A stretch of 64,000 nt of DNA from an uncultured delta proteobacterium (GTDB lineage Bacteria > Desulfobacterota > Binatia > UBA9968), in contig CAVSHR010000009.1 in NCBI GenBank assembly GCA_963727625.1, positions 128,001 to 192,000 of the forward strand. The letters are read 5' to 3'. Position 1 is the first letter of the stretch. Each line of letters starts with the position of its first letter. Shown here piece after piece: positions 1,662-21,817 of the stretch. Under the pieces are notes generated by a model. It saw only the letters and a program-made list of their open reading frames with translations, was not told the DNA's origin and did not search any database. The position numbers and the translations under genes are program-made.

Positions 1662-3908
1662 TCAGAGCAGCCGTCCGGCTTTGGCCAGCTCGGCCAACTT
1701 CTCTCTCAAACCGGTGTTTCTTTTCTCCACCCGCAGGTTGCGAATTGCCATGGCCACCGCCTTGCGGCTACCGACCAACACGACCAGTTTTTTGCCGCGC
1801 GTCACCGCGGTGTAGAGAATGCTGCGGTGCAGCATCATGTAGTGGGAAGTGTGGAGCGGAATGACCACGGCCGGATATTCGCTGCCTTGGCTTTTGTGCA
1901 CCGAAGTGGCGTAGGCCAGACTGATCTCATCGAGCTCATCGGACTCGTAATCAACCACCTTATCGAAAAAATCGACTTTGACGCTGCCGTCTTCGCTGTC
2001 GATGCCGACGATCCGCCCGAGGTCGCCGTTGAACACACCCTTGTCGTAATTGTTGCGCAGCTGCATGACTTTGTCGCCCAGGCGCAGAGTGAAGCCGCCG
2101 CGCTCTAGCGTCTGCCCCTGCGGATTGAGCAGGCTCTGCATCTCGCGGTTGAGATTGACGGTGCCGAGCAAGCCTCGGTGCATCGGCGTCAAGAGTTGGA
2201 TTGTCTGAGCCACCTCAAGCGGTTCCAACTGCAGCGACCTCGGGATGCTTTCGTGCATCAGCTCTTTCACCGTGTCGAGAATCTCATCTTCGGACTCCCG
2301 CGCTATGAAGACAAAATCCTGCGCTTCGCCTTCGTCGCTCAACACCAGGGATTGTCCCTGCAAAATCCGGTGCGCGTTCACCACGATCAAGCTCTCGCGA
2401 TCCTGACGGAAAATGCGCCGCAACACGACCTTGGGCACGACTCCGGAATCGATCAAATCGCGCAGCACGCTGCCCGGTCCTACCGACGGCAATTGATCGA
2501 CGTCGCCGACCAAAATGACATGGCTGTGCGGATCGACGGCGCGCAGCAGATGATCCATCAGCGAAATGTCAACCATCGAAGTTTCGTCGACGATGATGAA
2601 ATCCACTTGCAGAGGGTTATCTTCGCTGCGCTGAAAGCCGCCTTCGCGCGGATTGTATTCGAGCAGCCGGTGGATCGTCATCGCTTCTTCGCCGGCGCTT
2701 TCCGCCATGCGCTTGGCGGCCCGTCCGGTGGGCGCCGCGAGCGCGAAAGTCACCTTGGCGCGGCGCAGGATCGTCAGCAGCGCCATCAATAACGTGGTTT
2801 TGCCGGTTCCCGGCCCGCCGGTAATGACCAGCACCTTTTCCCGCAGGGCTTGCTGGGTGGCGTACACTTGATCCTCATCCAAGGTAAGCGCGACGGGCCC
2901 GAACAACTCGGGGTTGACCAGATCGACCGCGCCCCGCGCGGCGCGGGCCGAGCGATCCCAGGGTCCGATGAACTTTTCGCTCTGCACATAGGAAGGAGTC
3001 GACAACAAATTTTGCAACGTCGCCGCCACGCGTCGCTCGGCATGATAGAGCTCGGCAAGATAAATCTGCGTGGCCTCGCCTTCGCTCCATTCTTGCAGCA
3101 CCAGATCACCCTTCGACGCCAGCTTGCGCACCGCCGCATCGACCGGATCCTCGTCGATGTTCAACAGCGCGGCGGCGTTGCGCTTGAGTGAATCGAGATG
3201 CGCGTAGCAATGACCGCGCTCAGCCAGCTCGCGCAACACGTGCAAAACCCCGGCCTGCGCTCTGAGCGGAAAATCACCGCGAATGCCGATATGATGGGCG
3301 AGTCGATCGGCAAGTAGAAAGCCGATGCCGTGCACTTGCTGCGCCAGCGCATAGGGATTTTCCCTAACCTGGGCGATGGTATCGGCGCCAAAGACCCGGT
3401 AAATTCGCAGCGCCAGCGAAGCGCCCACACCGTGGCCTTGGAGAAACACCATTACATCCTGCATGCCGCGCTGTGTTTGCCAGGCTTCCATGATCCGGCG
3501 CGCGCGCACTTCGCCGATGCCGTCCACGTCAAGGATGCGCAAAGGTTCTTCGGACAACACGCGCAAGGTGTCGAGGCCGAAGGCGGTGACCAGGCGCTTC
3601 GCATAGCTCGGGCCGATCCCTTTGATCAGCCCCGAGCCGAGATATTTTTCGATGCCTTCGATGGTGGCGGGATCGATCTTTTCCCAGTGCTCGACTTGAA
3701 ACTGCAGGCCGTAACGCGGATGGCGTTTCCACATGCCGGAGACTTTTATCTCTTCGCCCTCGGCGACGGGGAAAAGCGTGCCGACCACTGTAACGGCGGG
3801 ACCGCCGTCCTCGTCCAACCGTGCCACCGTGTAATGGGTTTCCGGGCTGTGGTAGGTGATCCGGCTGATAGTGCCTTGTAACGCTGTTTCGCTCTGTTTT
3901 TCGGCCAA
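1662..3908 (-). CDS. recD2: ATP-dependent RecD-like DNA helicase (RecD2)
   Basis: HPRYGLQF, HhH motif YLGSGLIKGIG, Walker A ITGGPGTGKT, VDETSM, GDVDQLPSVGPG, YATSVHKSQGSE, LYTAVTRGK. Confidence 0.93.
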   Translation of the reverse strand: MAEKQSETALQGTISRITYHSPETHYTVARLDEDGGPAVTVVGTLFPVAEGEEIKVSGMWKRHPRYGLQFQVEHWEKIDPATIEGIEKYLGSGLIKGIGPSYAKRLVTAFGLDTLRVLSEEPLRILDVDGIGEVRARRIMEAWQTQRGMQDVMVFLQGHGVGASLALRIYRVFGADTIAQVRENPYALAQQVHGIGFLLADRLAHHIGIRGDFPLRAQAGVLHVLRELAERGHCYAHLDSLKRNAAALLNIDEDPVDAAVRKLASKGDLVLQEWSEGEATQIYLAELYHAERRVAATLQNLLSTPSYVQSEKFIGPWDRSARAARGAVDLVNPELFGPVALTLDEDQVYATQQALREKVLVITGGPGTGKTTLLMALLTILRRAKVTFALAAPTGRAAKRMAESAGEEAMTIHRLLEYNPREGGFQRSEDNPLQVDFIIVDETSMVDISLMDHLLRAVDPHSHVILVGDVDQLPSVGPGSVLRDLIDSGVVPKVVLRRIFRQDRESLIVVNAHRILQGQSLVLSDEGEAQDFVFIARESEDEILDTVKELMHESIPRSLQLEPLEVAQTIQLLTPMHRGLLGTVNLNREMQSLLNPQGQTLERGGFTLRLGDKVMQLRNNYDKGVFNGDLGRIVGIDSEDGSVKVDFFDKVVDYESDELDEISLAYATSVHKSQGSEYPAVVIPLHTSHYMMLHRSILYTAVTRGKKLVVLVGSRKAVAMAIRNLRVEKRNTGLREKLAELAKAGRLL

Positions 3909-4122
3909 GAGTCGCTCCCGGCCGCTATCCTACTTGAAAGCTTGGGTGGCGTAAACGACGGCCTTGCCTTTTCCATGTTGGGCGCTACAATTCCAGCCAA
4001 ATCAAGGATGTCCAAACCCGCTTCCTATAATAGGCTGTCCCCCGCCTAAACCTTTTGGCCAAAGCGCGACACACCGCCGCGGTACCGACCGGCCGGCCGA
4101 TCGATACCAGGAGAGGTTGAAT

Positions 4123-5430
4123 ATGACCATAGATGACTTTTGGCTCGAAGCGCTTCTGATCTTCGCCTTAATTTTTGCCAACGGTTTTTTTGCCGCTTCG
4201 GAAATCGCCATGATTACGATGCGCAAGAGCCGCATCGCCACCTTGTTGGAAAGAGGCGTCAAATCCGCCGCCATCGTCGCCCGATTAAAAGACGATCCCG
4301 ATCGCTTCCTCGCTACCGTGCAGATCGGCGTCACCCTGGTCAGTTCTCTGGCATCCGCCATCGGCGGCGCAGCGGCCATCGGCTACTTGAAGCCGCAGAT
4401 CGCCGCATTGCCTTTCGCCGCGCGTTGGTCTGAAGCGATCGCCCTGATAATCGTTGTCGTGCCGATTTCTTATTTTTCGCTCGTGCTCGGCGAGCTCGTG
4501 CCTAAATCTCTCGCGCTCAGATACTCTGAGCAGATCGCCTGTTTCGTCGCCCGGCCCATCGAGCTCCTCGCCCGCACCAGCTTTGTCTTCGTCAAGGCGC
4601 TGACGGCGTCGAGCAACGCGGTGCTGCGCCTGCTCGGCGGCAAGGACGCCGAAGGCGCAAGCTTCATTTCGGTGGACGAAGTCAAGTCGCTGATCCGCGA
4701 GGGCGCTGCCAAGGGAATCTTCAACGAGACCGAGAAGGAGCTGATTCACAGCGTATTCGAATTCGCCGACACGGCGGTCAAAGCGGTGATGATCCCACGC
4801 ACAGAGATTCACGCGATCGAGGCCCACTCCTCCCTCGCCGATGCCGCCAAGAGCTTTGTCGAAAGCGGCTTCTCACGCATTCCCGCTTATGAAAGCGAAC
4901 TCGATAAAATCATCGGTATTGTTTACAACAAAGACGTTTTTAAAGCGCTCCAGGAAAAGAGTGATTTTCGCGTGCGCGACCATCTCCACCCGGCCTTTTT
5001 CGTGCCCAGCACGCTGCCGATCAGCGAGCTCTTAAAGCAGCTTCAGCGCCGCCGCCTAGCCATGGCTCTGGTGGTCAACGAGTTCGGCGAAGTCGAAGGG
5101 CTGGTCACCCTGGAAGATCTGGTTGAAGAGATCGTCGGCGAGATTCGCGACGAATATGATCGCGAAGAACGCGGGCCGGTGGAGCGCCTGCCAGACGGCT
5201 CCATGGTGATTCAAGGCTCGGCGCTGCTCAAAGACTTAAAAACCGATTTTGATCTACCCTTTGAAGAGTCCCCGGACTACCACACGCTTGCGGGATTTAT
5301 GCTCGCCCGGCTAAAGCGCATTCCGCGTGGCGGCGAATGGGTCGAGGAGCACGGCCACAAGCTAACCATCGTCGATATGGAAGGGCGGCGCATCTTGAAA
5401 ATCAAGTCGGAAAAAACCGTCGCGGCGTGA
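4123..5430 (+). CDS. HlyC/CorC (CNNM) family membrane protein with CBS pair and CorC domain
   Basis: ANGFFAASEIA, FLATVQIGVT, LVLGELVPK, VMIPR, GFSRIP, GLVTLEDLVEEIVGEIRDEYD. ATG at 4123 follows AGGAGAGG. Confidence 0.92.
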   Translation: MTIDDFWLEALLIFALIFANGFFAASEIAMITMRKSRIATLLERGVKSAAIVARLKDDPDRFLATVQIGVTLVSSLASAIGGAAAIGYLKPQIAALPFAARWSEAIALIIVVVPISYFSLVLGELVPKSLALRYSEQIACFVARPIELLARTSFVFVKALTASSNAVLRLLGGKDAEGASFISVDEVKSLIREGAAKGIFNETEKELIHSVFEFADTAVKAVMIPRTEIHAIEAHSSLADAAKSFVESGFSRIPAYESELDKIIGIVYNKDVFKALQEKSDFRVRDHLHPAFFVPSTLPISELLKQLQRRRLAMALVVNEFGEVEGLVTLEDLVEEIVGEIRDEYDREERGPVERLPDGSMVIQGSALLKDLKTDFDLPFEESPDYHTLAGFMLARLKRIPRGGEWVEEHGHKLTIVDMEGRRILKIKSEKTVAA

Positions 5431-5464
5431 CCGCGTAAACACCCACTACACATTGTATGGCGGA

Positions 5465-5878
5465 TCAGTAACAACGGATCTCAATCTCGTTGCCGTCGGG
5501 ATCGAGAAAATAAACCGAAGTCGCACGACCGCACGCGCCCCAGCGTGACACCGGTCCTTCGCGGACGGAAACTCTATGTGCCGCCAGATAGTTGACGATA
5601 CCGGCAAAACCCGCGGCGTCGACGACCATGCAAAAATGATTTAGGTTGCCGTCATTTTTCGCGCCGCTGAGCGCCGGCATCTTCTCCTTGGCGGGAAACA
5701 AATCGATGATCGTCGCATCATTGATGCGCACCGATGGGAAGCCGACCCGGCCGGCTCTAAACTCCTCGACCCGCTCGCCCTTTAGGCCGAGAATTTCACC
5801 GTAGAATGCCAGGGAGCGCTCAACGTCGCCGACGTTGAGCACGATATGGTCCAACCCCGTGATGTTTAGCCTTGCCAT
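5465..5878 (-). CDS. VOC (glyoxalase/bleomycin resistance) family protein
   Basis: GLDHIVLNVGDVERSLAFY, NLNHFC, SVYFLDPDGNEIE. Confidence 0.88.
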   Translation of the reverse strand: MARLNITGLDHIVLNVGDVERSLAFYGEILGLKGERVEEFRAGRVGFPSVRINDATIIDLFPAKEKMPALSGAKNDGNLNHFCMVVDAAGFAGIVNYLAAHRVSVREGPVSRWGACGRATSVYFLDPDGNEIEIRCY

Positions 5879-5891
5879 GGTCGAACTCCTT

Positions 5892-6977
5892 TCACGGCAC
5901 CGCCGCCGCAGCGGTCACTGAGAGCGTGCCGATTGCCGCCAACTCTTTCAAGAGTACTTGAACTTCCTTGGGTTTGCCCACTGTGATGCGCAGGCAGTCT
6001 TGCAACCCCGGCAGATCGAAATAACGCACCAGTATCATCCTGCGCTTGAGCGCCTCATAGACCGGTTTCAAGCTCGCTCCCTGCTTGCGCGCCAAAACGA
6101 AATTCGCATGGGACGGATAAACCTGAAAGCCCAGCCGCTTGAGCGCCGTAGTGAGCCGCTTGCGGCTCTGTCGAATGCGCCGCGCGTTGCGATTCATCCA
6201 GGGCAGGTCTTGTAACGCCGCGGTCGCAGCGACAAGACTCAGGCGGTTCAAGTTGTAGGAATCTTTGACCTTCATCATGCCGGCGATGATTTCCTCTGAC
6301 GCGAAGGCCAGGCCGATGCGCATGCCGGCAAGGGAAAAGGATTTAGACAAGGTTCGCAGCACGACCAAATTGGGCAACCGCTGGATCAGCGGCATCGACG
6401 AGGCCCCTTCGCTATCGGCAAAGTCGATATAGGCTTCGTCGACGACCAGGATACCGGAAATCGCACGCGCCAGTTTTTCGATTTCTGGCGAGGGTACGAG
6501 CGTACCCGATGGCGCGTTGGGATTACATAGAAACGTTAGCGCCGCCTCCTGCCCGGCCAGTGCCAAGGGCATGGAAAAATCTGCCGGGTAATCGACCGTG
6601 GCCCGGATACCGTCGTGGATCTCAACCAGGGTATCGTAAAGCGAGTAAGTGGGAATCGGAAAAGCGACCCGGTCGCCCGGACCGACAAAACAACGGAGCA
6701 ACATCGACAAGAGCTCATCCGAACCGTTGCCGGCGATGATATTTGCCGGCCTGACGCCGAACACGCCCGCAGCCACCGTGCGCAAGCTATCGCTCAATGG
6801 TTCCGGATAGAGCCGCAGAGATGCGTTGACCGCTTGCCGAAGTGCGGCGTACACCTTGGGCGACGGCGGGTAGGGGTTTTCGTTGGTATTTAACTTAATA
6901 ATCCCCGGGTCCTGTAGCTGTTCGCCCGGGACATACCCCGCCATGGTGGCAATGTTCGATCGAAAATAATTCGCCAT
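5892..6977 (-). CDS. hisC: Histidinol-phosphate aminotransferase
   Basis: IKLNTNENPYPPSP, GNGSDE, NPNAPSG, VVDEAYIDF, PLP-Lys motif RTLSKSFSLAGMRIG, LRITVG. Confidence 0.93.
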   Translation of the reverse strand: MANYFRSNIATMAGYVPGEQLQDPGIIKLNTNENPYPPSPKVYAALRQAVNASLRLYPEPLSDSLRTVAAGVFGVRPANIIAGNGSDELLSMLLRCFVGPGDRVAFPIPTYSLYDTLVEIHDGIRATVDYPADFSMPLALAGQEAALTFLCNPNAPSGTLVPSPEIEKLARAISGILVVDEAYIDFADSEGASSMPLIQRLPNLVVLRTLSKSFSLAGMRIGLAFASEEIIAGMMKVKDSYNLNRLSLVAATAALQDLPWMNRNARRIRQSRKRLTTALKRLGFQVYPSHANFVLARKQGASLKPVYEALKRRMILVRYFDLPGLQDCLRITVGKPKEVQVLLKELAAIGTLSVTAAAAVP

Positions 6978-7139
6978 AGCCCTGAAGTTTATCGGCAGCC
7001 AGAACGCTTTTCAAATCGTCTTTCGCCGTCGAGGTGAAATGTCAAACTTGCAGAATTGCCACCTTCATCAATCCCGAACTCTGATTTAGCGGTTGATCCA
7101 AGTATCGCCAAGAGAGTCCGGTACACCGACAACTAATGA

Positions 7140-7278
7140 GACAAATTTGTCCAACGATTCCTGGAATTGTCCAAATTTCCTCAATTTTCCGGTTTACGCG
7201 GGATCCGGCCCAAGACCCTGGTTTTTAACTATATGATTTTAAATGACTCTTTATTCCGCCAGTGGCATGTTTTTGGCT
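7140..7278 (+). promoter_or_regulatory. Predicted sigma-54 promoter with IHF-like site and upstream palindrome
   Basis: TGGCATGTTTTTGGCT (7263-7278) has correct -24 GG / -12 GC spacing. TAACTATATGATT (7226-7238) is one mismatch from the IHF consensus YAANNNNTTGATW. Palindrome GACAAATTTGTC at 7140-7151. Confidence 0.6.
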
Positions 7279-7360
7279 ATAGCGTCATAGTTGGCTGAGC
7301 CCTTGGACCGTTGCAGCATTGATTTTCCAGCTCACCCGGCCGAGGCAGAGTTTTAGTTGC

Positions 7361-10300
7361 ATGGACTTCAGCAAATTCCCCAAAAGCGATCCTGCAGCCC
7401 TGCTGCTCAATGAGATCGAGATCTTGCAGGCGCAAGCCCGCTTGATCGAGCTTTACCTTAAACAAGCCCAGGCCACCTCCGATGATGAAATCGCGCGCCT
7501 GCACGCTCGTTATGAAAACGAGCTCACGGCGCTGCGCGCCGAGCTCGCTGCCAAAGAAGCTTCTGCGCGTCGCGAGTCCGAACCGGCGCCCGATGCCGGG
7601 CTGCGCGAACAATTCGAGTCTTTGAAAAACCAACTAGCCGAAGAACAACGGGCGGTCGAAAGCCGCAATGCCGAGCTGCATAGCGCCAAGTCGGATGCCG
7701 ATGATTTGCGCGACCGGATCAGCCAATTGGAATTCGTGCACCAGCAAGCGCAGGCGGCCGTGAGCCAGACTGTGCAAGCGCGACAAGAATTGGAGGCGGA
7801 CCTCGCGACCGTTCGCGGCCAACTGGCGGATCAGCAAGAGGGTCTCCAACAACACCAACGGGTCGCCCACCAGATTCAGGAGAGCTTACAGAGTCAACTC
7901 GCTCAACTACACGACCAGCTGGCAACGCAATCCTATAATGCCGCCACGGAGCTCGAAGCAGCAGCCAATGAAATCGCCGCTCTGCGTTACCACATCGGCG
8001 AGCTGCAAGCGAGCTTGCAAGAGACTCAAGGGCGCGCGGCGCGGGAAATCGAACAGGCTCGGGCGCAATCTGACGCCGAGCTGGCCATCCTGCGCTCTAC
8101 CCTGGAGACACGCGAGCAAAGCCTACGGGAAAATCAGGCCGCAACGATCGAGATCGAGGGCAATCTCAAGAGCGAAATACTCGGGATTCGGAACCAGCTC
8201 GCACAAAAACAGGCACTGGTGGAGTCGCGCGTTCAGGAACTCAGCGCCGCCAGCGCGCGCGTCGCCCTACTTGAGCAAGAGCTCGCCGAGCGCGTTGCAG
8301 CCCACCACTCGGCGCACGCGAAAGCCGAGGAGCTCGACGCCCTGCGTCGCGCCAATGAAAACCAGATCGCTGAACTAGAGCATCAAGTGGCAGTCAAAGA
8401 GCGCGCCCTCGGCGAGCGCCAAGAAGCAGTCACCGCCGTCGAGCTGGCGTTGCATAGTCGAATTCAAGCACTCCAACAGGAGCTCGCCCGCAACCGTAGC
8501 GAAATCCAGGAGCGCGAAGTTGACGCGAGCACAGCGCGGGCTGAAGCGGAAAGTCTGCGGGGGAGAATCAGCGCGCTGGAATCCGCAGCCGCCGACGCCG
8601 CGCTTCGCGCACAAGAGCTCGCCGAGGCCGCAAGTCGCGACCTGCAAAAGGAGATTAACGGCTTGCGCGCGACCCTGGCGCGACAAGAATCGACCGCCGC
8701 GTATCGAGAGAACGCTCTGAAATCCGCCCTCGATGAATTGAACGCCGAGATCAACCAAAGACGCAGGGAGCTGGAACAGCAACATGAATTAACCGACCAG
8801 CTCAACAGCGAGATCGAGCAGGTGCGGGGAAATATAGCTGCCGCCGAGAAGCAAAAGGCGCAGTCCGAGCAAGCCCGCAGCCGGGTCGAGGAGAACTGGC
8901 TGGAGGCTAGCAATATTTGCCGGGATCTGGAAACCCGTCTGGAAGCGAAAGACGCCGAGCTTAACGCGCGCCTCGCCGATTTGCGTGAGCACAATGAGTC
9001 GACGCTGCGCGAGCGGGAAGGCACCTTTCAAGCTCATGAAGCGCAGTTACAAGACGAGCTACGGCGCCTACGCGAGCAATGCCAAAACCACCACGATGCT
9101 ATGGCCGAGGCGCATCTGGAGCTCGATGCGCTGCGCGCCGAGATCGCCGCGCTTGAAGTCCGCCATTCTCAAACCGAACAATTTCGCTGCGAACTCGAAA
9201 AGAACTTGGAAGAAGCTCTCGCCCACGGCAAAGATTTACAATCCCGGCTTGATGCTAAAGACCAAGAGCTCCGTGACTCAGCCGCGGCCGCGCAGCTTGA
9301 AAAAGAAGTGGCGCTCACTGCGCGAGACGAAGCCCTCAAATCTCTAGTAGGGCAACTGAGCGGAGAGATCGATCAGTTGCGCGCTCAGACCCAAGAACAA
9401 CAGAGCGAAGCCGCCGAGGCACAAAATGAAATCAATCGACTGCGCGAGGCGATCACCGCGCTCGATGCAGGCGTACACGCCAAAGACGAAGAGCTCAAAG
9501 CCACGCGAATTACCGCCGTCGATCAAGCGCGCCAGCTCGACAGCAAAATTAAAGAACTGCAATGTCAAATCGCCGAAAAGCAATTGCTCGTCGAAAGTCG
9601 CGTGGCCGAGGTTGCCGGGCTGGAGGCCGAACTGAGCCGCGCCACGGAGCATCTTGCCCGAAGGGACGCCGCCGAAGACGAAACTAGAAACACCTATTTG
9701 AGAGACACCGAAGCCATCCGCACGGCGCACCTGGCCGAGCTATCAAGCTTGCAGGAACAATTCCGCGCCGAGCGGCAAGGCCCTGAGAACGAGCTTGCCC
9801 GCGCGCAGTTAGATGTCGCCCTTTTGAACCAGCAAGTTTCTGAGATGGAGGAGCAACGTCGTGCCGCCGAGACGCGACTGCAAGAGCGGGAACAGGAATT
9901 AGCCGCGGTAGCGGCCGAAGCTTCTCATTTGCACACGCGACTCGATCAAGTCGAAGCCCTGCGACAGAAAGAACAAGCTGCCACGGAAGCAGACGAGCAA
10001 GCTCGCCAAGGGCTGGATGGCGAGCTGGCCACGTTGCGCTACGAGCTGCAACAGAAAGCTTGGGCTCTGGCCCAGCAGCAGGCGACCCTGGACAATTCGG
10101 CGCTGGCCCATAAAAATCAGATCCAAAAGTTCGAAAGCAGGATCGACGAACAGCAACGCGGCATTGAAGAGCGGGACGGAGCACTCGAAAGTGCCCACCT
10201 GCGCGCCCAATCCTTGGAGCAGCGCGTTAACGAGCTGCAAGCCGAACTGCAACAAGCCGAACGGACGGCTCTGGAGCAAACCCAGCAGCTAACCGAAGAT

Positions 10301-10954
10301 TATGCCATCAAGATCGATGACATGACCCGGCGTCTTGCGCAAAACCCGGCTGAGCTACAGGATCGCGGCGAGACACAGGCCAACCGTGAACAAAGCCTCC
10401 GCAGCGAGATCGACCGGCTGATTCGCGAAGCACAGGAGAGGAATCAAATCCTCCAGGACCGCAACGAGGAGCTGGTACGGGTCAAGGCCGAGATGGACCA
10501 ACTGCACGATCGGCTTAATCAAATCGAATCGTCAGCGTCTCAAGCCGAGAACGCCCTTGCCAGCGAAACTGAACGCATGCGCGCTGAATTTCAAGCCCAG
10601 CTTGCCCTATTGCAGGCCGAGCTCAGTCAGAAGGAATGGGCGCTGGAGGAGCAGCGCGGCGCGGCCAAGGGAATCGACCAGACACAATCTCAACAAATCG
10701 AATCGTTGCACCAGCAGTATCGCCATCAGATTGAAACCCTGCGCCAACAGTTGACCCAAGCGGAATCTGGTCCAAAAGAAGCCAATGATCGATTCGTTCT
10801 CGGCGAAGATCGATTGAAACAGGAAAGAGAAGATCGGCTGAAAAAGTACCGAGAAGCGATGGCCGAAATATCGCATGGTCCGGATTCGTCATCTCCCGCT
10901 TCGGAGAATCGCCGCTGGCGCAGCCGGTTTAACTGGAAACGACGCTGGAAATGA
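7361..10954 (+). CDS. Giant (~1197 aa) repetitive coiled-coil protein of unknown function with basic/Trp-rich C-terminus
   Basis: E/Q/A/L/R-rich heptad sequence, almost no Pro/Gly, no Walker motifs, TM segment or signal peptide, internal repeats. Ends RRWRSRFNWKRRWK. ATG 7361 preferred over TTG 7319. Confidence 0.85.
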   Translation: MDFSKFPKSDPAALLLNEIEILQAQARLIELYLKQAQATSDDEIARLHARYENELTALRAELAAKEASARRESEPAPDAGLREQFESLKNQLAEEQRAVESRNAELHSAKSDADDLRDRISQLEFVHQQAQAAVSQTVQARQELEADLATVRGQLADQQEGLQQHQRVAHQIQESLQSQLAQLHDQLATQSYNAATELEAAANEIAALRYHIGELQASLQETQGRAAREIEQARAQSDAELAILRSTLETREQSLRENQAATIEIEGNLKSEILGIRNQLAQKQALVESRVQELSAASARVALLEQELAERVAAHHSAHAKAEELDALRRANENQIAELEHQVAVKERALGERQEAVTAVELALHSRIQALQQELARNRSEIQEREVDASTARAEAESLRGRISALESAAADAALRAQELAEAASRDLQKEINGLRATLARQESTAAYRENALKSALDELNAEINQRRRELEQQHELTDQLNSEIEQVRGNIAAAEKQKAQSEQARSRVEENWLEASNICRDLETRLEAKDAELNARLADLREHNESTLREREGTFQAHEAQLQDELRRLREQCQNHHDAMAEAHLELDALRAEIAALEVRHSQTEQFRCELEKNLEEALAHGKDLQSRLDAKDQELRDSAAAAQLEKEVALTARDEALKSLVGQLSGEIDQLRAQTQEQQSEAAEAQNEINRLREAITALDAGVHAKDEELKATRITAVDQARQLDSKIKELQCQIAEKQLLVESRVAEVAGLEAELSRATEHLARRDAAEDETRNTYLRDTEAIRTAHLAELSSLQEQFRAERQGPENELARAQLDVALLNQQVSEMEEQRRAAETRLQEREQELAAVAAEASHLHTRLDQVEALRQKEQAATEADEQARQGLDGELATLRYELQQKAWALAQQQATLDNSALAHKNQIQKFESRIDEQQRGIEERDGALESAHLRAQSLEQRVNELQAELQQAERTALEQTQQLTEDYAIKIDDMTRRLAQNPAELQDRGETQANREQSLRSEIDRLIREAQERNQILQDRNEELVRVKAEMDQLHDRLNQIESSASQAENALASETERMRAEFQAQLALLQAELSQKEWALEEQRGAAKGIDQTQSQQIESLHQQYRHQIETLRQQLTQAESGPKEANDRFVLGEDRLKQEREDRLKKYREAMAEISHGPDSSSPASENRRWRSRFNWKRRWK

Positions 10955-11062
10955 TAGCAACGACGAATCCGATCCGGGGTCAAAACTAAGCTTCAGGCCC
11001 TGCGCGCTATTCAACAATGAGGTGATCGCTTTGGGCGCTAAATTAGCCGCAAAAGGAAGAAC

Positions 11063-11791
11063 ATGATACAAACCGAACGCATCCCGACGGGAATCACAGG
11101 GCTCGACCCATTGATCGAAGGCGGCCTGCCGAAAGGGCGGTCGTTTCTCATAACCGGGGAGCCGGGGACGGGAAAAACCATATTTGCACTGCAATTTCTT
11201 TTTGATGGACTGAAGCGCGGAGACAAAGGCATCTATGTAACCGCCGATGAAAGTCCCGTGGATGTTCTCGAACAGGCGGCGTCCTTGGGATGGGATTTCG
11301 AGTCCTACGTCGAGACCAAAGAACTGGCGATCTTGAACGCCGGAACCTATCTCACCACACTGCCGGGGCAAGGCAAGGAGCGGCCCATCGATCTCATTAA
11401 AGCAGTCGGCGATCTTGCCGGCTTCGTCAACCAGATCGGCGCCAAGCGCCTCGTGCTCGATCCCGCCGGTCCGTTCGTGCTGCTGCGCGACAGCACGGTC
11501 AGAATCCAAGATCAAACCCGCTTGCTGATTAAGCTGCTGCGCTCATCCATGCAGACGACGAATCTTCTGACGACCTACGCGGTGCCGCGCACCGGCGAAC
11601 GCAGCATGCACGGCATCGAGGAATACCTCGTCGCCGGCGCCATCGTGCTCGAGATGATATGGAAGGACGAAGGCCTTGGCCGAAGCTTGATCGTCGAAAA
11701 AATGCGCTGCACGGACGTCAAACCGAGGCAAATCGAATTCGATATCATCAAAGGCCAGGGCATCGTCGTACAACCGCCGCCGGAGCTTTAG
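11063..11791 (+). CDS. Single-domain KaiC-like / RAD55 RecA-superfamily ATPase
   Basis: RIPTGITGLDPLIEGGLPKG, Walker A GEPGTGKT, YVTADESP, RLVLD, RSLIVEKMR. Confidence 0.9.
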   Translation: MIQTERIPTGITGLDPLIEGGLPKGRSFLITGEPGTGKTIFALQFLFDGLKRGDKGIYVTADESPVDVLEQAASLGWDFESYVETKELAILNAGTYLTTLPGQGKERPIDLIKAVGDLAGFVNQIGAKRLVLDPAGPFVLLRDSTVRIQDQTRLLIKLLRSSMQTTNLLTTYAVPRTGERSMHGIEEYLVAGAIVLEMIWKDEGLGRSLIVEKMRCTDVKPRQIEFDIIKGQGIVVQPPPEL

Positions 11792-12040
11792 TTGGCCGGT
11801 GCTACAAATTCATCCGTCATCCTACGGTCCTAAATTCCGCCCATCCGGCAGGTTGTTCTTCCGCGTCCAACCGCCGTCCCATCTCTCGGCGCCAACGACC
11901 CATTTCAGCGGTTGACTGTCGCCACAAACCGGTTCGGGATTAAATCAACCTCAACAAACAGAGTTTTTCGCTTTCGGTGATTCCGTGTTTCTGTCCTGGG
12001 CGCAATATTTTTCTGAGATTTCTTGCGATTTTTCATTTTC

Positions 12041-12069
12041 TTGACAGCCGGCGCAATGATGCTTAGCTT
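12041..12069 (+). promoter_or_regulatory. Sigma-70-type promoter of clpB
   Basis: TTGACA-17 bp-TAGCTT, followed by GAGGTG RBS before ATG 12092. Confidence 0.55.
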
Positions 12070-12091
12070 TTTAGCATACGCGAGGTGAGAA

Positions 12092-14719
<2,628 letters not shown>

Positions 14720-14786
14720 GCGCGTCGTCGAGAAGAATCGCTCCGGGACTGGCGCGGGTTCGAAAAGCAATTCCTCCCCCTGGCAA

Positions 14787-14900
14787 GGTCTTCAGAGACC
14801 AGAAGAGAGCGAGTCGCACTCGGTCTAAAGTGGAACTCCAACAAGAGCTGAAAGCATCTCAGCCGCGTAAATCTTGTTAACCGTCCTCTGCGATCTGCGA
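14787..14900 (+). ncRNA. Candidate structured RNA of unknown class between clpB and the MFS cluster
   Basis: Nested perfect stems AACAAGA/TCTTGTT and GCTGA/TCAGC, hairpins GGTCT/AGACC and CGAGT/ACTCG, immediately followed by a terminator. Confidence 0.35.
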
Positions 14901-14902
14901 TG

Positions 14903-14940
14903 AGAGGGGGGCAGTCCGATAAGGCGTGCCCCCTTTTTTT
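14903..14940 (+). terminator. Rho-independent terminator
   Basis: GGGGGCA (14907-14913) pairs with TGCCCCC (14927-14933), followed by T7. Confidence 0.8.
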
Positions 14941-14945
14941 AAGTC

Positions 14946-15281
14946 ATGGCCGATTCAATGATCGCGGACGAGCAAAAAGCCCGCTCTCGACGGGTCCTGT
15001 ACCGGGTTTCGCTCGGCCTTGCCCAAGTCGCCGTCAATCATCGCGCGATTCAGATCGCCTTGCCGACCCTGACTCATGGATTTGGGGCGAATTGTCGTTT
15101 ATCGAGTGGGTACGGATTGGCCGCCGGCGGCTTGACGACGCAGCAGACCGAATCGCCCGAGGGTGGGTCGGCCGCGCCCAAGCAATTTCTCCAGGTGTTC
15201 GGCTCCACCGTTCATTTCGTCAATGGCTTCGCGCTTTTGGCGATTTTGTTTTCAGCTTTGCGCGGGGGTAATAGAAGTTAA
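14946..15281 (+). pseudogene. Internally deleted MFS transporter paralog (first and last helices only)
   Basis: N-part VNHRAIQIALPTLT matches LDQRALLVALPTLT of the next gene; LSFIEWV (other frame) matches LSTIQWV; C-part YGLAAGG...TVHFVNGFALLAILFSALRG matches YGLAAAG...TVHIVNLFTLLSVLFSAVRG. Confidence 0.8.
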
Positions 15282-15323
15282 CCGCCGACCGGGTGATCAC
15301 GCTACCGCGGCCGCTAGGACACC

Positions 15324-16760
15324 ATGGAATCCTCCGAAGCAAAACCCGCCAATCAACGCCGTCTCACGCTCATTCTTTTCAACGTCTGTGTCGGTCAATT
15401 CATCGTCGGTCTCGACCAGCGCGCCTTGTTGGTCGCGCTGCCGACGCTGACCCAGACGTTCAAGACCAGCCTGTCCACCATCCAGTGGGTGCTGCTTATT
15501 TATGATTTGCTCCTGATCGGCACGGTGATCACCGTCGGGCGCCTCGGTGATCTATTCGGCCGGCGGCGCTTTTACAGCTGCGGCTTTCTGGTTTTTGTGC
15601 TGAGCTCGGCGCTCTGCGGCGCCGCCCAGTCGGCCTGGCAGATTATTTTATTTCGTGGCATGCAGGCCATCGGCGGCGCGATGATCTCGGCCAATGGACG
15701 CGCGGTCGCTTCCATCGCCTTGCCCGCGAGCGAGCGCGGCAAGGCAATGGGCTTCGCCTCCATGGCGTTTCACATCGGTTTTTTAACCGGCCCGACGCTC
15801 GGCGGATTTTTAATCGACAGCATCGGTTGGCGCTGGATTTTTTACCTTAATCTACCGGTCGGTCTTTGGGGCGCCTACCTGGCGTGGACGCTTCTGGAAG
15901 AAAGCAAAGAAACGGTCAAAGGCATCACGGTCGATTTGCCGGGGGCGATTCTGCTCATGCTGACTTGCACGCTGTTAATCTACGGCATGAACCAGCTACC
16001 GCATGTCGGTTGGGACAGCCCCTTGGTGACCTGGATGCTCGCGCTCGCCGCCGTCGCCCTGGTGCTGTTCGTGATCGTCGAGCTTAAATCGCCCATGCCG
16101 ATTCTGAGTTTTTCGCTGTTTCACAATCGGCTGTTTAGCGCATCCATCCTTAGCCTGTTTTTCATCACCTCGACGCAATCCGCCATCAGCTTTCTAATGC
16201 CATTTTACCTGCAAAACATTTTGCTTTTTTCGCCGACCCAAATGGGCTGGATCATCATCGCCAATTCGGTCGTCATCGTGATGGTCGCACCGGTCGCCGG
16301 CTGGCTGTCGGACCGCATGGGCTCGCGACTGCTCTGCTCGGTCGGTTCGGCCTTGATCGTCGCCGGGCAGTTTTTCATCGCCTCCCTGGGCGCCGACTCG
16401 TCTGTCCCGCGCATCATCTTTCCGCTTGTGCTGACCGGTTTCGGCTGGGCGATCTTCAATTCGCCGAACCAAAGCGCGATCTTGGGTTCCGTGCCGCGCG
16501 ACAAAGTCGGCACGGCGTCGGGCATGAATACCACCACGGCTCGCACCGGCGGCGCCATGGGCGTAGCCCTCTCCACCACCTTGTTTACCTACGGCCTGGC
16601 CGCCGCTGGGATGACCCGGGCACAAATCGAAGCGCCGCAATCTTGGGGCAGCGCGCCGGAGATTTTCGTTCACTCGTTCAATCACACGGTTCATATCGTC
16701 AATCTTTTCACCCTGCTATCGGTGCTTTTTTCGGCGGTCCGAGGCCAGCGTCAGGAATAA
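15324..16760 (+). CDS. MFS transporter, DHA2 (EmrB/QacA-like) type
   Basis: Motif A GRLGDLFGRRR, GPTLGGFLI..IGWRWIFYLNLP, AGWLSDRMGSR, about 14 hydrophobic segments. Confidence 0.92.
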   Translation: MESSEAKPANQRRLTLILFNVCVGQFIVGLDQRALLVALPTLTQTFKTSLSTIQWVLLIYDLLLIGTVITVGRLGDLFGRRRFYSCGFLVFVLSSALCGAAQSAWQIILFRGMQAIGGAMISANGRAVASIALPASERGKAMGFASMAFHIGFLTGPTLGGFLIDSIGWRWIFYLNLPVGLWGAYLAWTLLEESKETVKGITVDLPGAILLMLTCTLLIYGMNQLPHVGWDSPLVTWMLALAAVALVLFVIVELKSPMPILSFSLFHNRLFSASILSLFFITSTQSAISFLMPFYLQNILLFSPTQMGWIIIANSVVIVMVAPVAGWLSDRMGSRLLCSVGSALIVAGQFFIASLGADSSVPRIIFPLVLTGFGWAIFNSPNQSAILGSVPRDKVGTASGMNTTTARTGGAMGVALSTTLFTYGLAAAGMTRAQIEAPQSWGSAPEIFVHSFNHTVHIVNLFTLLSVLFSAVRGQRQE

Positions 16761-16783
16761 GCCGACCGGGCAAGGAAACTTTA

Positions 16784-18220
16784 ATGACGCCCTCGGTTGC
16801 ACAAGGAACTTCGCGGCGAACCTCGCAGCTCATTTTGTTGAGCGTCTGCCTCGGCCAGACTATCGTCGGCCTCGATCAGCGCGCCATCACCGTCGCGCTG
16901 CCGACGCTGACGACAACTTTCCACACGGCGTTCACGACCATTCAGTGGACCATTCTAGTCTACGATTTGGTGCTCATCGGCCTGATCATCACCATGGGCC
17001 GCCTCGGCGATATTTTTGGCCGGCGCCGCTTTTACACCCTGGGCTTTCTTATTTTCGTAAGCGCATCGGCGCTCTGTGGTCTATCGCAAAGCACCGGGCA
17101 ATTGATTTTCTTTCGCGCTATTCAGGCCCTCGGCGGTTCGATGATCGCGGCCAACGGCCGGGCCATCGTCTCGGTCAACTTGCCGCCTGAGGAGCGCGGC
17201 CGTGCTCTTGGGTTGACTTCCACGGCATTTCACATCGGCTTTCTCACCGGCCCGGCACTAGGGGGCTTTCTCATCGACACCATCGGCTGGCGCTGGATTT
17301 TCTACATCAACATGCCGTTCAGCCTATGCGGCGCCTACCTGGCCTGGAAAGTCGTCCCCGAGACCCGCATAACGGAGAAGACGGCGGTCGATATTCCGGG
17401 CGCCTTGCTGCTGCTTGCGACCAACGGTCTGTTTATCTACGCCATCGATCAATTGCCGCGCACCGGCTGGTTGCACCCGACCTTTCTAACAATCCTGTCG
17501 CTCGCCGTCGCGGCGCTGGTGGTCTTGTTGCGCGTCGAAGCCCGGACTCCAACTCCGATTCTGATCTTGTCCATGTTTCGCACCCGGCTGTTTAGCGCCG
17601 GCATCTCGAGCCTGTTTCTCGTTGCCGGCACCCTCTCGGCGATCAATTTTCTGCTGCCGTTCTTTTTGCAAAACCTGCTCGGCTACTCACCCTCGCAGGT
17701 CGGCTGGATCATCGTCGCCGACTCGGTGATCATCATGGTCATGGCGCCCATCGCCGGCTCCCTCTCCGACCGCTTCGGTTCGCGCCTGCTCTGCACGGTC
17801 GGCTGTGCCGTCATTGCCGTCGCGCAATTTTTCCTGGCCACACTGCACATGGACGCGACGCTGGCGCGGATCATCTTGCCGCTCGGCCTTTGGGGAATCG
17901 GCTGGGCGCTGTTCAATGCGCCAAACCAAAGCTCGATCCTGGGCGCGGTCGGTCCGGATAAGATCGGCGCCGCCGCCGGCATGATCGCAACCACCGCCCG
18001 TACCGGCGGTGCCATGGGCGTGGCGCTGTCGGCAACGCTGTTCGGCTATCTACTGGCGTCCGCAGGTTTGACCGGCGCGCAAATCGGCGCGCCCGAAAGC
18101 TGGCGCGCCGCGCCGGAAACATTTCTGCACGCATTCTCAACCACCATCTATGTGCTTAATCTCTTCACTCTGGCGGCGGTATTTTGCTCGGCGGTCAGGG
18201 GCCGGCGCCGGGTCGATTGA
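16784..18220 (+). CDS. MFS transporter, DHA2 type (tandem paralog)
   Basis: GRLGDIFGRRR, IGWRWIFYINMP, colinear with 15324-16760. ATG 16784 after AAGGA. Confidence 0.92.
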   Translation: MTPSVAQGTSRRTSQLILLSVCLGQTIVGLDQRAITVALPTLTTTFHTAFTTIQWTILVYDLVLIGLIITMGRLGDIFGRRRFYTLGFLIFVSASALCGLSQSTGQLIFFRAIQALGGSMIAANGRAIVSVNLPPEERGRALGLTSTAFHIGFLTGPALGGFLIDTIGWRWIFYINMPFSLCGAYLAWKVVPETRITEKTAVDIPGALLLLATNGLFIYAIDQLPRTGWLHPTFLTILSLAVAALVVLLRVEARTPTPILILSMFRTRLFSAGISSLFLVAGTLSAINFLLPFFLQNLLGYSPSQVGWIIVADSVIIMVMAPIAGSLSDRFGSRLLCTVGCAVIAVAQFFLATLHMDATLARIILPLGLWGIGWALFNAPNQSSILGAVGPDKIGAAAGMIATTARTGGAMGVALSATLFGYLLASAGLTGAQIGAPESWRAAPETFLHAFSTTIYVLNLFTLAAVFCSAVRGRRRVD

Positions 18221-18488: not shown

Positions 18489-19610
18489 ATGAGCTGGTAT
18501 CTCCATATCGACATGGATGCGTTTTACGCATCGGTTGAACAGGTGCTCGACCCGAGCCTGAAGGGCAAACCGGTGATCGTCGGCGGCCGCAACGGCCGCG
18601 GCGTGGTCACTTCGGCTTCTTATGAAGCGCGCAAATTTGGCGTCCACTCGGCAATGCCGGGGTTTCAAGCGAAAAAGCTCTGCCCGCAAGGAATATTTTT
18701 GGCCAATCGGCGCCGTATCTATTCTGAATTCTCCGATAAAGTTTTTGCAATTCTGGAGCAGTATTCGCCAAATGTTAAGGCCCTTTCCATCGACGAAGGA
18801 CTCGTCGATTTAACCGGCACCGAGCGGCTCTTCGGCCCGCCGCTCACGACCGCCGACGGGATCATTCGTCGCATCGCGAGCGAGCTCGGCCTGCCCTCTT
18901 CCGGCGGGCTTTCGACCAGCAGAGTGACGGCGAAAATCGCTGCAACCCTGGCCAAGCCGCGCGGGCTTGTTTACGTGCCGGCCGGCTCGGAAGAAGATTT
19001 TCTCGAGCCCTTGGCCGTGGAAATGATTCCCGGCGTCGGCCCGAAAACGCTCAAGGCGCTTAATCTTAAAAAGATTAAAACTATCGCCGAGCTCTTACAA
19101 CGCGCTGATTTAGCGGCGCGCTATTTGGATCTCGGCGCAACGGCCGAGCGCCGCCATCATCACGATCATTCCGTCGGCAATGAAACGACTCTCGAAAAGC
19201 CGCTCAAGGGAATTGCCGAGATGGAAAAAATCCTCTGGGAGCTGGTCGAGGAAGTGGGCGGCAGATTGCGCAGGGAAGAATTATTCGCGCGCTGCCTGAC
19301 CGTAAAAATTCGCTACAGCGATTTTCACACGATCACCCGGTCGCGCACCCTGGCGGCACCGACTTGCTTCGACAAGGAAATGTTTGAAGTCACCGCCGGC
19401 TTGCTCCGGCAAAACCTCGCGCGCGGCCGAGCCGTGCGCCTGCTCGGCGTGAGCGCCAGCGCGCTGCAAAACTCGGGCTGGCAAGAACCGCTGTTGCAAC
19501 GTGACCGGCGCGAGTCTTTCGAGCGGCTTTATAAAGGCATCGACGCGCTGCGCCGGAAGTACGGCGAGAATGCTATCGGCGCAGCCACGCCGCGACAGCG
19601 CGCCGGTTGA
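18489..19610 (+). CDS. dinB: DNA polymerase IV (Y family)
   Basis: HIDMDAFYASVE, ASYEARKFGVHSAMP, SIDEG, AKPRG, VKIRYSDF, VRLLGV. Confidence 0.93.
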   Translation: MSWYLHIDMDAFYASVEQVLDPSLKGKPVIVGGRNGRGVVTSASYEARKFGVHSAMPGFQAKKLCPQGIFLANRRRIYSEFSDKVFAILEQYSPNVKALSIDEGLVDLTGTERLFGPPLTTADGIIRRIASELGLPSSGGLSTSRVTAKIAATLAKPRGLVYVPAGSEEDFLEPLAVEMIPGVGPKTLKALNLKKIKTIAELLQRADLAARYLDLGATAERRHHHDHSVGNETTLEKPLKGIAEMEKILWELVEEVGGRLRREELFARCLTVKIRYSDFHTITRSRTLAAPTCFDKEMFEVTAGLLRQNLARGRAVRLLGVSASALQNSGWQEPLLQRDRRESFERLYKGIDALRRKYGENAIGAATPRQRAG

Positions 19611-19655: not shown

Positions 19656-20708
19656 ATGGCCAATTCTACCCATGCTTTTCTCGCGGCTTGCCGGCGCGAG
19701 GCGGCTTCATACACGCCAATCTGGCTGATGCGCCAAGCCGGCCGCTATATGGAAGATTATCGCAAACTGCGAGCGCGGCATGATTTTCTTGAATTGTGCA
19801 AAAATCCCGACCTTGCCGCGGAAATTACGATCACGCCGGTGGAGCGACTCGGCGTCGACGCGGCGATTCTGTTCGCCGATATTTTACTGATCCTCGAACC
19901 CATGGGTGTCGGCTTGGAATATTCCAAAGGCGATGGCCCGGTGATCCATCGCCCGGTGCGCAGCGGCAAGGACGTCGACGGCCTGAAGGATTTCGCGCCG
20001 GCGAAAGATTTGGAGTTTGTTTACGATGCAGTGAAAAAAATCAGCAAGGCGCTGAAAAACAAAGTGCCGCTCATCGGCTTCGCCGGCGCGCCGTTCACGC
20101 TAGCATCCTATCTGATCGAAGGCGGCGGCTCACGCAACTACGTGCATACCAAGAAACTTTTCTATAACGCTCCGGAGGCGTGGCAGCGCCTGATGGAGCG
20201 GCTCGCCAATGCGGTCGCGGAATATTTGAATTGCCAGATCGCCGCTGGCGCCCAGGCGGTCCAGTTGTTCGACAGCTGGGCCGGCTGTTTGACGCCGATG
20301 GATTATGAACGCTTTGCTCAGCCCTACACCAAGACAGTGATCGACGCCATTACCCCGGGCGTTCCGGTGATTAACTTCAGCACCGGCACCACCGGCGCGC
20401 TCAAACAGATTCGCGCCGCCGGCGGCGACGTGATCGGTCTGGACTGGCGCGTGAACCTCGACGAGGGTTGGGCCACGGTCGGCCACGATGTTGCGGTGCA
20501 AGGCAATCTCGATCCGGTCGCCCTGTTCGCCGCACCCAAGGAAATTAAAGCACGCGCCGGCGATATTCTGCGCCGCGCCGGCGGACGGCCCGGCCATATT
20601 TTCAATCTCGGGCACGGCGTTTTGCCCGAAACGCCGGTGGACCACGTGATCGCCTTGGTCGAAGCGGTGCACGAGCTCAGCGCGAGGAATACTGGAGTAA
20701 TGGAGTGA
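19656..20708 (+). CDS. hemE: Uroporphyrinogen decarboxylase
   Basis: PIWLMRQAGRY, DAAILFADIL, LIGFAGAPFTLASY, QLFDSWAG, QGNLDP, IFNLGHGV. Confidence 0.96.
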   Translation: MANSTHAFLAACRREAASYTPIWLMRQAGRYMEDYRKLRARHDFLELCKNPDLAAEITITPVERLGVDAAILFADILLILEPMGVGLEYSKGDGPVIHRPVRSGKDVDGLKDFAPAKDLEFVYDAVKKISKALKNKVPLIGFAGAPFTLASYLIEGGGSRNYVHTKKLFYNAPEAWQRLMERLANAVAEYLNCQIAAGAQAVQLFDSWAGCLTPMDYERFAQPYTKTVIDAITPGVPVINFSTGTTGALKQIRAAGGDVIGLDWRVNLDEGWATVGHDVAVQGNLDPVALFAAPKEIKARAGDILRRAGGRPGHIFNLGHGVLPETPVDHVIALVEAVHELSARNTGVME

Positions 20709-20809
20709 TGGAGTACTGGAGTGACGGAGTACTGGAGTAATGTTTCATACGCGATGACCGATCAAGCCGTTATTCCATCATTCCAACACTCCATCACTCC
20801 AGTATTCCA
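20685..20809. repeat. Octamer tandem array (TGGAGTRV-like) with inverted complementary array
   Basis: Six to seven TGGAGTAA/TGGAGTGA/TGGAGTAC units at 20685-20740 and five TCACTCCA/TCATTCCA/GTATTCCA units at 20770-20809. Confidence 0.85.
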
Positions 20810-20819
20810 GTAAGTTCCC

Positions 20820-21764: not shown

Positions 21765-21817
21765 AAAATGGAGAATCGTCATCCTCAATCATCGATCCTC
21801 CACCTGCGACCTACGGT

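Follow-up and report, generated by a model that had tools for sequence, protein, structure and literature searches.

This analysis concerns a stretch of 64,000 nucleotides (nt) from an uncultured delta proteobacterium of the Binatia (assembly GCA_963727625.1, contig CAVSHR010000009.1, positions 128,001 to 192,000), termed the window below. It contains a pair of co-oriented genes between hisC and clpB. The first gene encodes a long coiled-coil protein, termed CC, and the second a single-domain KaiC-like ATPase, termed KaiCl or KaiCl-1. In most relatives a second KaiC-like gene, KaiCl-2, follows. A preliminary description, made from the sequence alone, had proposed a two-gene system under a sigma-54-type promoter in which the ATPase controls a cytoskeletal or polar scaffold. 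The operon genes (CC, KaiCl-1 and mostly KaiCl-2) are closely spaced behind one conserved enhancer-type promoter. They are read here as a lineage-specific, sigma-54-dependent operon of Binatia type, in which CC may act as a scaffold and the ATPases as a switch. This reading is held tentatively, with slightly more doubt than confidence. The features of the operon are as follows.

7148 to 7172, + strand: candidate site for an upstream activator, formed by the direct repeat TGTCC-N15-TGTCC and lying about 90-115 base pairs (bp) upstream of the -24/-12 element
7226 to 7238, - strand: site resembling the IHF consensus (the window copy has one mismatch), located between the repeat and the -24/-12 element
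7263 to 7278, + strand: sigma-54-type -24/-12 element TGGCATGTTTTTGGCT (GG-N10-GC), 98 nt before the ATG at 7361
7361 to 10954, + strand: CC gene, encoding an all-helical coiled-coil protein of 1197 amino acids (aa), a family without known match
7385 to 7495, + strand: conserved N-terminal head helix of CC (residues 9-45, core LLLNEIEIL)
10367 to 10759, + strand: conserved C-terminal coiled-coil module of CC (residues about 1003-1133, about 130 aa)
10910 to 10951, + strand: C-terminal tail of CC, cationic and aromatic (RRW-x5-6-KRRW), preceded by a disordered acidic linker
11063 to 11791, + strand: KaiCl (KaiCl-1), 242-aa single-domain KaiC-like (CI-like) ATPase of the RecA superfamily

The CC frame is open on the + strand from a TTG at 7319 (1211 aa) or an ATG at 7361 (1197 aa) and stops at 10954. 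The ATG is the likely start because 18 related genes start at the matching Met with the same N-terminal motif. In the window, 108 bp separate the CC stop from the KaiCl start, both genes lying on the + strand as originally described, and no terminator-like site was found on the + strand of this gap. Comparisons with relatives draw on 32 related loci obtained from one genome scan with a KaiCl alignment, the patterns of which were specific to KaiCl-1 orthologues. The gap from CC to KaiCl-1 measures 7-132 bp in 20 genomes, and that from KaiCl-1 to KaiCl-2 measures -4 to 95 bp in 18 genomes. The surrounding window region, 3964-16760, is too densely filled with genes to fit one more. The coding strand also shows an AT skew (A over T) of 0.32-0.35 in window positions 8001-11000 compared to about 0-0.1 around them, which is due to the Glu/Gln/Ala/Arg-rich composition of CC.

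A single match to the -24/-12 pattern is at chance level for one window, in which 2.5 are expected at one mismatch. The element upstream of CC is considered more than a chance match because it is conserved in relatives. It is present in 27/27 sequences, comprising the window and all 26 loci that hold the intergenic region upstream of CC, and GG-N10-GC occurs at only 4 other places across all loci and both strands. This phylogenetic footprint upholds the sigma-54-type promoter first proposed from one sequence. The element lies 77-98 nt upstream of the CC start codon in the seven genomes measured. In an alignment of 18 promoter regions, mean column identity is 43%, and the invariant columns form three blocks: two GTC cores (both invariant in 18/18 sequences), a TAA in an AT-rich box and the -24/-12 element. 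The repeat TGTCC-N15-TGTCC matches once in the window, where chance alone would give 0.74, and a paired GTC element stands upstream of the promoter in 25 of the 27 sequences by a loose regular expression. The AT-rich box was compared with WATCAR-N4-TTR, which we take to be the IHF consensus. An exact match occurs at the same offset in 11/27 promoters compared to 47/5400 shuffles (0.9%).

Among the Salmonella sigma-54 promoters listed in PMC3844500, sequences resembling this -24/-12 element are found. The same source places enhancers about 70-150 bp upstream of sigma-54 promoters, and the spacing of the repeat fits this range. The TGTCC repeat may be the binding site of an enhancer-binding protein. 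The footprint strongly backs a sigma-54-type promoter ahead of the CC operon.

KaiCl is composed of a single Pfam KaiC domain (PF06745, E 4.1e-59, 200.2 bits, cut-off 26.6) that spans residues 7-240 of 242, in agreement with the preliminary description. It carries the Walker A motif GEPGTGKT at residues 32-39, and D62, E63, D133 (Walker B), K213 and R215 are invariant in 31 sequences. D62-E63 align with the EE acidic pair of KaiC CI, and K213/R215 align with the K..R of KaiC. Presumably these residues act as they do in KaiC, that is, as a catalytic acidic pair and as trans-acting Lys and Arg. Compared with solved structures, the KaiCl-1 profile is closest to KaiC CI (E 6.6e-54), followed by PH0186 (6.7e-40), PH0284 (3.3e-36) and SSO2452 (4.7e-34), and the nearest Atlas clusters are archaeal single-domain KaiC proteins with scores of 0.96-0.98. 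An AlphaFold2 model of KaiCl, built from 24 near-identical sequences, has a mean predicted local distance difference test (pLDDT) of only 60 and was used solely to confirm the KaiC fold, on which Foldseek agrees.

KaiCl is 73-88% identical across 31 loci and 79-86% identical to the best 120 environmental proteins listed. It is the constant, strongly constrained component of the operon and has retained every ATPase and subunit-interface motif of a KaiC CI-type hexamer. PH0284 and PH0186 crystallised as hexamers, according to PMC5019145. Because of these crystals and the conserved interface residues, KaiCl-1 is predicted to be a hexamer, and it is likely to be an active, CI-like ATPase.

A circadian-clock KaiC was considered and rejected, since KaiCl has one domain and 242 aa and scores far below the clock models (TIGR02655, 102.7 bits against 546.25; NF006799, 136.6 against 408). 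Clock KaiC combines CI and CII in tandem in about 500 aa. The KaiA, KaiB, histidine-kinase and gas-vesicle families have no match among the 45 scanned open reading frames (ORFs) of the window, as the preliminary description had said of the nearby genes, and neither does a sasA-type kinase gene. The analogy with archaeal ArlH/FlaH that had also been drawn proves to be distant. KaiCl falls below the ArlH/FlaH cut-offs (NF052589, 47.9 bits against 215; NF006320, 31.2 against 215), FlaH structures match the KaiCl-1 profile at E 1e-6 only, and the closest solved relatives are KaiC CI.

In contrast to KaiCl, which is a new member of a known family, CC represents a family without a Pfam or NCBIfam model, and it exceeds no curated cut-off in either collection. 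No family relation emerged from PADLOC, Foldseek or Atlas either, which bears out the initial view that the coiled coil is not a clear orthologue of a known protein. The protein is composed of 16% Ala, 14% Glu, 12% Leu and 11% Gln, with 9 Pro in 1197 residues, and a hydrophobic periodicity of 3.5 residues lies above the 95th percentile of shuffles in 27/41 windows. Kyte-Doolittle means over 19 residues reach 0.85 at most, and the protein therefore has no transmembrane helix and no stretch resembling a signal peptide. The AlphaFold2 model (mean pLDDT 67, predicted template modelling score 0.26) is all helix with zero strand and a disordered end. Its helices span residues 11-69, 79-190, 198-407, 419-612, 686-868, 885-993 and 1006-1133. 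These features are those of a long heptad coiled-coil rod without enzymatic domain, and the pure coiled coil of about 1200 aa without SMC Walker motifs, membrane segment or signal is confirmed.

Residues 613-685 (nt about 9197-9415) are the sole long stretch that AlphaFold2 leaves without continuous helix, with pLDDT about 50-55; this stretch may represent a hinge, or it may just be poorly aligned. A Foldseek comparison of the CC model with the PDB gave 0 matches at E<=0.001 and only short helical look-alikes, among them a non-significant match to Vipp1/PspA (E 3.2). The Pfam Filament model reaches 18.8 bits against a cut-off of 40, the Pfam scan gave no PspA_IM30 match in CC, and an Atlas search with the C-terminal part of CC returned generic coiled-coil clusters only, all with scores <0.9.

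For CC, 84 homologues of 719-1896 aa at 25-46% identity were obtained, which one source labels 'chromosome segregation ATPase'. This label raises the question of whether the locus serves DNA maintenance, with CC as an SMC/Rad50-like or DNA-tethering rod and the ATPase as a RadA-like repair factor. The weak matches of CC to SMC, Rad50 and LmuB, the Arg-rich tail that could bind DNA, the RecD2-like and DinB-like genes 3-8 kb away and the presence of SSO2452, a RadA paralogue, among the solved relatives of KaiCl would all fit such a role. However, the SMC and Rad50 models score 14-71 bits on CC against cut-offs of 300-1087 and align with coiled-coil stretches only, and CC lacks a Walker A motif, an ABC head and a hinge. 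The RadA and RecA models likewise score 34 and 27 bits on KaiCl against cut-offs of 403 and 325, and KaiC CI is by far its best match. Membership of CC in the SMC, Rad50 or SMC-like proteins (LmuB, JetC) was rejected, given the lack of Walker A and the all-helix model without a globular head, and the 'chromosome segregation ATPase' label is wrong. A DNA maintenance function is accordingly regarded as highly improbable.

Long coiled-coil proteins paired with NTPases also occur in Lamassu- and Wadjet-type systems, and the arrangement at this locus is similar in that respect. CC gives a weak match to LmuB (E 6.8e-10), limited to the coiled-coil part at profile positions 524-823, and a mad8 match (E 2e-5) was obtained. 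No PADLOC model matches past coiled-coil or P-loop similarity, though, and the pair occupies a fixed housekeeping locus in every genome rather than a variable island, with no nuclease or other effector gene at the locus. Anti-phage defence, or another conflict system, is the weakest of the readings and is given almost no credence.

Sequence conservation in CC is concentrated at its ends. In the N-terminal helix, L15, E18, L22, Q25 and E30 are invariant in 48 sequences, and this helix opens 18/18 of the intact genes listed. In the C-terminal module, L1020, E1026, L1031, R1034, N1035, K1042 and D1046 are invariant. The R, R, W ... K, R, R, W residues of the tail are invariant in 24/24 aligned tails; the tail has a net charge of +4 to +7 with 3-4 aromatic residues per 12-13 residues and is modelled as disordered. 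Because the N-terminal, C-terminal and tail residues are invariant across the lineage, CC is under selection. The tail may bind membrane or polyanions. A profile of the C-terminal part found 238 cluster representatives among 1.84 billion proteins, and the CC family is therefore small.

Weaker copies of the C-terminal module are detected by the profile along the rod, with 7 in CC of the window and 1 to 16 in relatives. Across 16 proteins the copy number correlates with CC length (r = 0.95), although generic coiled-coil similarity may add to this signal, and self-BLAST of CC for repeats gave nothing. Since copy number tracks length, the CC rod probably grows and shrinks by gaining and losing whole module units.

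The 32 related loci carry mostly Binatia or 'delta proteobacterium' labels, with a few others, and all belong to one lineage of Binatia-type metagenome-assembled genomes. Their gene order is CNNM, VOC, hisC, [CC], KaiCl, [second KaiC-like gene], clpB and MFS, where brackets mark genes that are not always present. Six records (L001, L002, L005, L012, L014 and L031) are labelled Chloroflexota, Syntrophobacter, Limnocylindrales, Verrucomicrobiia or Udaeobacter. As far as their contigs extend, their gene order is the same, and their ClpB is 86-94% identical to that of Binatia-labelled records; they are probably mis-binned or mislabelled contigs. In 27/31 assessable loci CC lies directly upstream of KaiCl. 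At least 5 matches of CC and KaiCl share a longest contig of the same length (42096, 9393, 132916, 104160 and 5381). The linkage of the two genes across related genomes, on which the preliminary description had staked its proposal, was thus found, but as a test it is weak because all 32 loci represent a single syntenic lineage.

The idea of a fixed two-gene system does not stand. KaiCl-2 follows KaiCl-1 in 26/32 loci, and CC is missing or damaged in several others, as described below. Where intact, KaiCl-2 has about 255-294 aa and 39-45% identity to KaiCl-1. It is absent from the window, where no remnant of it was found, and from six loci. In the ClpB tree these absences fall in four separate places, including the window, whose sister L001 has KaiCl-2; it was therefore lost at least four times, once in the lineage of the window. 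A split KaiC, with KaiCl-1 as CI and KaiCl-2 as CII, was considered and rejected, as both match KaiC CI best. Since both paralogues are CI-like, they are tandem duplicates and not a divided CI/CII pair.

KaiCl-2 (L001:1020-1814, L011:10747-11532 and the matching genes in 26/32 loci) bears a C-terminal extension of about 25-40 aa past the KaiC domain. Within the extension, the short motif F/L-E-x-F-x-L-x-K is conserved and may be a docking peptide. In one locus (L006:9950-11458), KaiCl-1 and KaiCl-2 form one 502-aa ORF, and clpB is fragmented in the same locus. This ORF may be an indel error of a long-read assembly and not a true fusion; no similar fused protein was found in a search among longer proteins.

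The operon is flanked by two well-identified genes and a second promoter-like element.

5892 to 6977, - strand: hisC (TIGR01141, 344 bits against a cut-off of 276.55)
12040 to 12068, + strand: promoter-like element of clpB (CTTGACA, spacer, GCTTAGCT), marking the end of the CC-KaiCl unit
12092 to 14719, + strand: clpB (TIGR03346, 1421 bits against a cut-off of 1232.1)

Both flanks exceed their equivalog cut-offs, and the placement of the pair between hisC and clpB is thereby verified. CTTGACA, a spacer of 16-17 nt and GCTTA precede clpB in 26/29 sequences (the window and 28 loci), and in the window a short palindrome, ATGCT..AGCAT, overlaps this element. The distance from the last ATPase gene to clpB is 237-595 bp. 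The conserved element of its own suggests that clpB is transcribed separately and is a neighbour, not a member, of the CC-KaiCl operon.

This boundary bears on the proposal that the operon forms a module for protein quality control or heat shock in cooperation with the ClpB disaggregase. Its products might, for instance, mark or organise aggregates or damaged parts of the membrane. Such a module would explain why clpB directly follows the CC/KaiCl unit in 32/32 loci, and it would suit the conserved clpB element, which we take to resemble a heat-shock promoter. The sigma-54 binding sites of Salmonella include pspA, pspG, rpoH and clpP, according to PMC3844500, which is also in line with this proposal. 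However, clpB has the separate promoter-like element and the spacing given above, and the unrelated hisC, VOC, CNNM and MFS genes are equally syntenic, so that the position of clpB carries little information. A joint function with ClpB is thus judged improbable.

Further along the window, two tandem genes for DHA2/EmrB-type MFS efflux transporters lie downstream of clpB (15324-16760 and 16643-18220), and most related loci likewise give a second MFS match. A 123-aa ORF between clpB and these genes (14900-15271) has no family match; it is weakly conserved, with tblastn matches in 4 loci. A RecD2-type helicase is encoded at 1662-3908 on the - strand, and a DinB-type (IMS) polymerase and a haem-synthesis run occupy 18489-19610 and 19656-23248. 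The haem-synthesis run consists of uroporphyrinogen decarboxylase, ferrochelatase and an amine-oxidase-type protoporphyrinogen-oxidase-like gene. Many Amidohydro_2, NMT1/THI5-like and TctC genes are found further along.

In the scaffold-and-switch reading preferred here, an enhancer-binding protein would switch the operon on in a particular state. Envelope or proteotoxic stress would be the most likely such state; stress is favoured because of the stress regulons for which sigma-54 is known and because of the adjacent heat-shock gene clpB. CC would then dimerise into a rod, and its cationic, aromatic tail would anchor this rod to the anionic inner membrane or to another polyanion. The rod could thus provide a scaffold or tether of adjustable length, while the KaiC-like ring or rings would act as a slow nucleotide-dependent switch. 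CC would position or concentrate the ATPase, rather than the ATPase needing CC. This non-essential, positioning role is the most likely one for CC, since loci with a decayed CC still have intact ATPase genes.

Several observations weigh against this reading. CC is decayed or absent in 4/31 loci in which the ATPase genes are intact. The remnants are an N-terminal stub (L016), a 153-aa ORF (L019) and a 93-aa mini-gene that keeps the tail (L024), and L031 has none. KaiCl-1 in these four loci has 76-78% identity, the same as in other loci, and therefore the ATPase does not need CC. In a fifth locus, L002, CC is disrupted by foreign DNA. Physical contact between CC and KaiCl, a cytoskeletal role of CC and its control by the ATPase are all matters that we infer, and the stress link draws only on the gene neighbourhood and on general knowledge of sigma-54. 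The adjacency of the two genes is weak evidence of joint function, because within one lineage whose whole neighbourhood is syntenic it may reflect inheritance and not selection. A search among longer proteins gave no CC-KaiC fusion, the best match being a 33%-identical ordinary two-domain KaiC, although this is weak evidence. The tail of CC could bind nucleic acid instead of membrane. With respect to the promoter, the -12 triplet is G/A/C-GC instead of the usual TGC, and no rpoN or enhancer-binding-protein gene was found among the 45 scanned ORFs of the 64-kb window. A complex prediction from alignments for the 282-aa CC of L021 with its KaiCl-1 scored 0.00 in two runs without controls, which speaks neither for nor against binding.

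The foreign DNA of L002 consists of about 9 kb of unrelated sequence (L002:1-9190) that replaces the 5' part of CC and the synteny on the hisC side. It contains a Phage_integrase-family ORF (4200-4766) and an AAA ATPase ORF, and no tRNA gene was called at the junction. The record represents either an insertion or a chimeric assembly.

The same four loci without CC (L016, L019, L024 and L031) have retained the promoter, which therefore also serves the ATPase genes. Intact CC proteins differ greatly in size, with 282 (L021), 435-436, 508-528, 1019-1064 and 1197 aa (the window) and up to 1634 aa. The plasticity of CC is part of the case for a different explanation, namely co-transcription of genes whose functions are independent of each other. 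The KaiC-like ATPases would then be the real, conserved unit for signalling or stress, whereas CC would be an accessory or passenger gene that evolves fast and neither binds nor depends on them. Consistent with this, CC has a median identity of 38% (26 loci) compared to 68-88% for the flanking genes and 73-88% for KaiCl-1, and CC proteins of 1197, 508 and 282 aa occur within one well-supported four-member clade of the ClpB tree. The reduction of CC to 282 aa, to remnants or to nothing beside two intact ATPase genes fits as well, as does a stress-resistance benefit of KaiC-like proteins in Pseudomonas that a preprint reports (10.1101/2022.01.26.477890). On the other hand, a dispensable passenger does not readily account for N-terminal, C-terminal and tail residues that are invariant across the lineage and thus under selection, nor for the retention of CC directly before KaiCl-1 behind the same promoter in 27/31 loci. 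Functional independence is considered doubtful, but it has to be taken seriously.

The scaffold-and-switch reading can be carried further, to a new kind of ATP-regulated bacterial cytoskeletal element, made only once a sigma-54 enhancer-binding protein has sensed a specific state. CC would be a membrane-anchored coiled-coil tether whose length evolves by gain and loss of modules, as a tunable spacer or ruler, and the KaiC ring or rings would form a hexameric switch that sets its assembly or position. In this full form the proposal is unlikely.

Parts of this arrangement recall known systems. KaiCl shares its fold and motifs with KaiC CI and with the archaeal single-domain KaiC-like proteins (UPF0273: PH0284 and PH0186; SSO2452). 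In contrast to the archaeal proteins, it is bacterial, lies under a sigma-54 promoter and forms a pair with a coiled-coil gene. Both bacteria and archaea widely possess single-domain KaiC-like ATPases. With the exception of ArlH, almost none of them is known to have a partner or role, and the archaeal ones are described as largely uncharacterised in PMC5019145. The same source describes ArlH (FlaH) and ArlX (FlaX) of the archaellum as a single-domain KaiC-like nucleotide binder with a membrane scaffold, and CC and KaiCl may work alike. However, no arlI-, arlJ- or arlX-type genes were found in the window or in the flanks of the compared loci, and CC has no transmembrane segment. FlaH, moreover, is described in PMC5019145 as having a non-canonical Walker B and no detectable ATPase activity, whereas the acidic pair of the CI type is retained in KaiCl.

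A KaiC ATPase and a coiled coil are likewise combined in a KaiC whose C-terminus is extended by a coiled coil (bioRxiv 10.1101/2022.11.28.518275 and PMC10076222; structures 8dba and 8fwi), and the KaiCl sequence matches both structures. There, the two-domain KaiC, which works with KaiB, carries the coiled coil as a short extension, whereas CC is a separate protein of up to 1634 aa beside a single-domain ATPase. In the PspF-PspA system, a sigma-54- and enhancer-dependent operon has a helical membrane-binding stress protein as its main product. The list of sigma-54 promoters in PMC3844500 includes those of pspA and pspG. The psp operon has no KaiC-like ATPase, however, and CC has no PspA_IM30 match. 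The combination of CC and KaiCl therefore resembles ArlH with its scaffold, or a psp-type sigma-54 stress operon, in outline only.

Crescentin, FilP and Scy are long, domain-free heptad coiled coils like CC, and the crescentin rod cluster is one Atlas lead for it (score 0.86). CC has no significant sequence or fold relation to these proteins. It also differs from them in its own conserved ends, its Arg/Trp tail, its extreme size variation and the dedicated ATPase gene alongside it. Full-text literature searches found nothing on a CC-KaiC gene pair, on sigma-54 control of KaiC-like genes or on KaiC in the Binatia.

The host organisms are uncultured members of a soil bacterial lineage. The operon is lineage-wide and cleanly delimited, and it offers several experimental handles, namely a signal-dependent promoter and a candidate scaffold whose conserved ends and tail offer precise candidate sites for interaction and anchoring. 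Its natural variants, with one or two ATPase genes and CC of 0 to 1634 aa, amount to an evolutionary deletion series. Should CC and the ATPases prove not to be coupled, the analysis would still provide useful annotation for the Binatia, in the form of a member of the sigma-54 regulon, a new protein family and a corrected label for CC. If the coupling is true, the operon would provide a first bacterial case of a KaiC-type switch that acts on a structural protein, and CC would illustrate how rapidly the length of a bacterial coiled coil can evolve.

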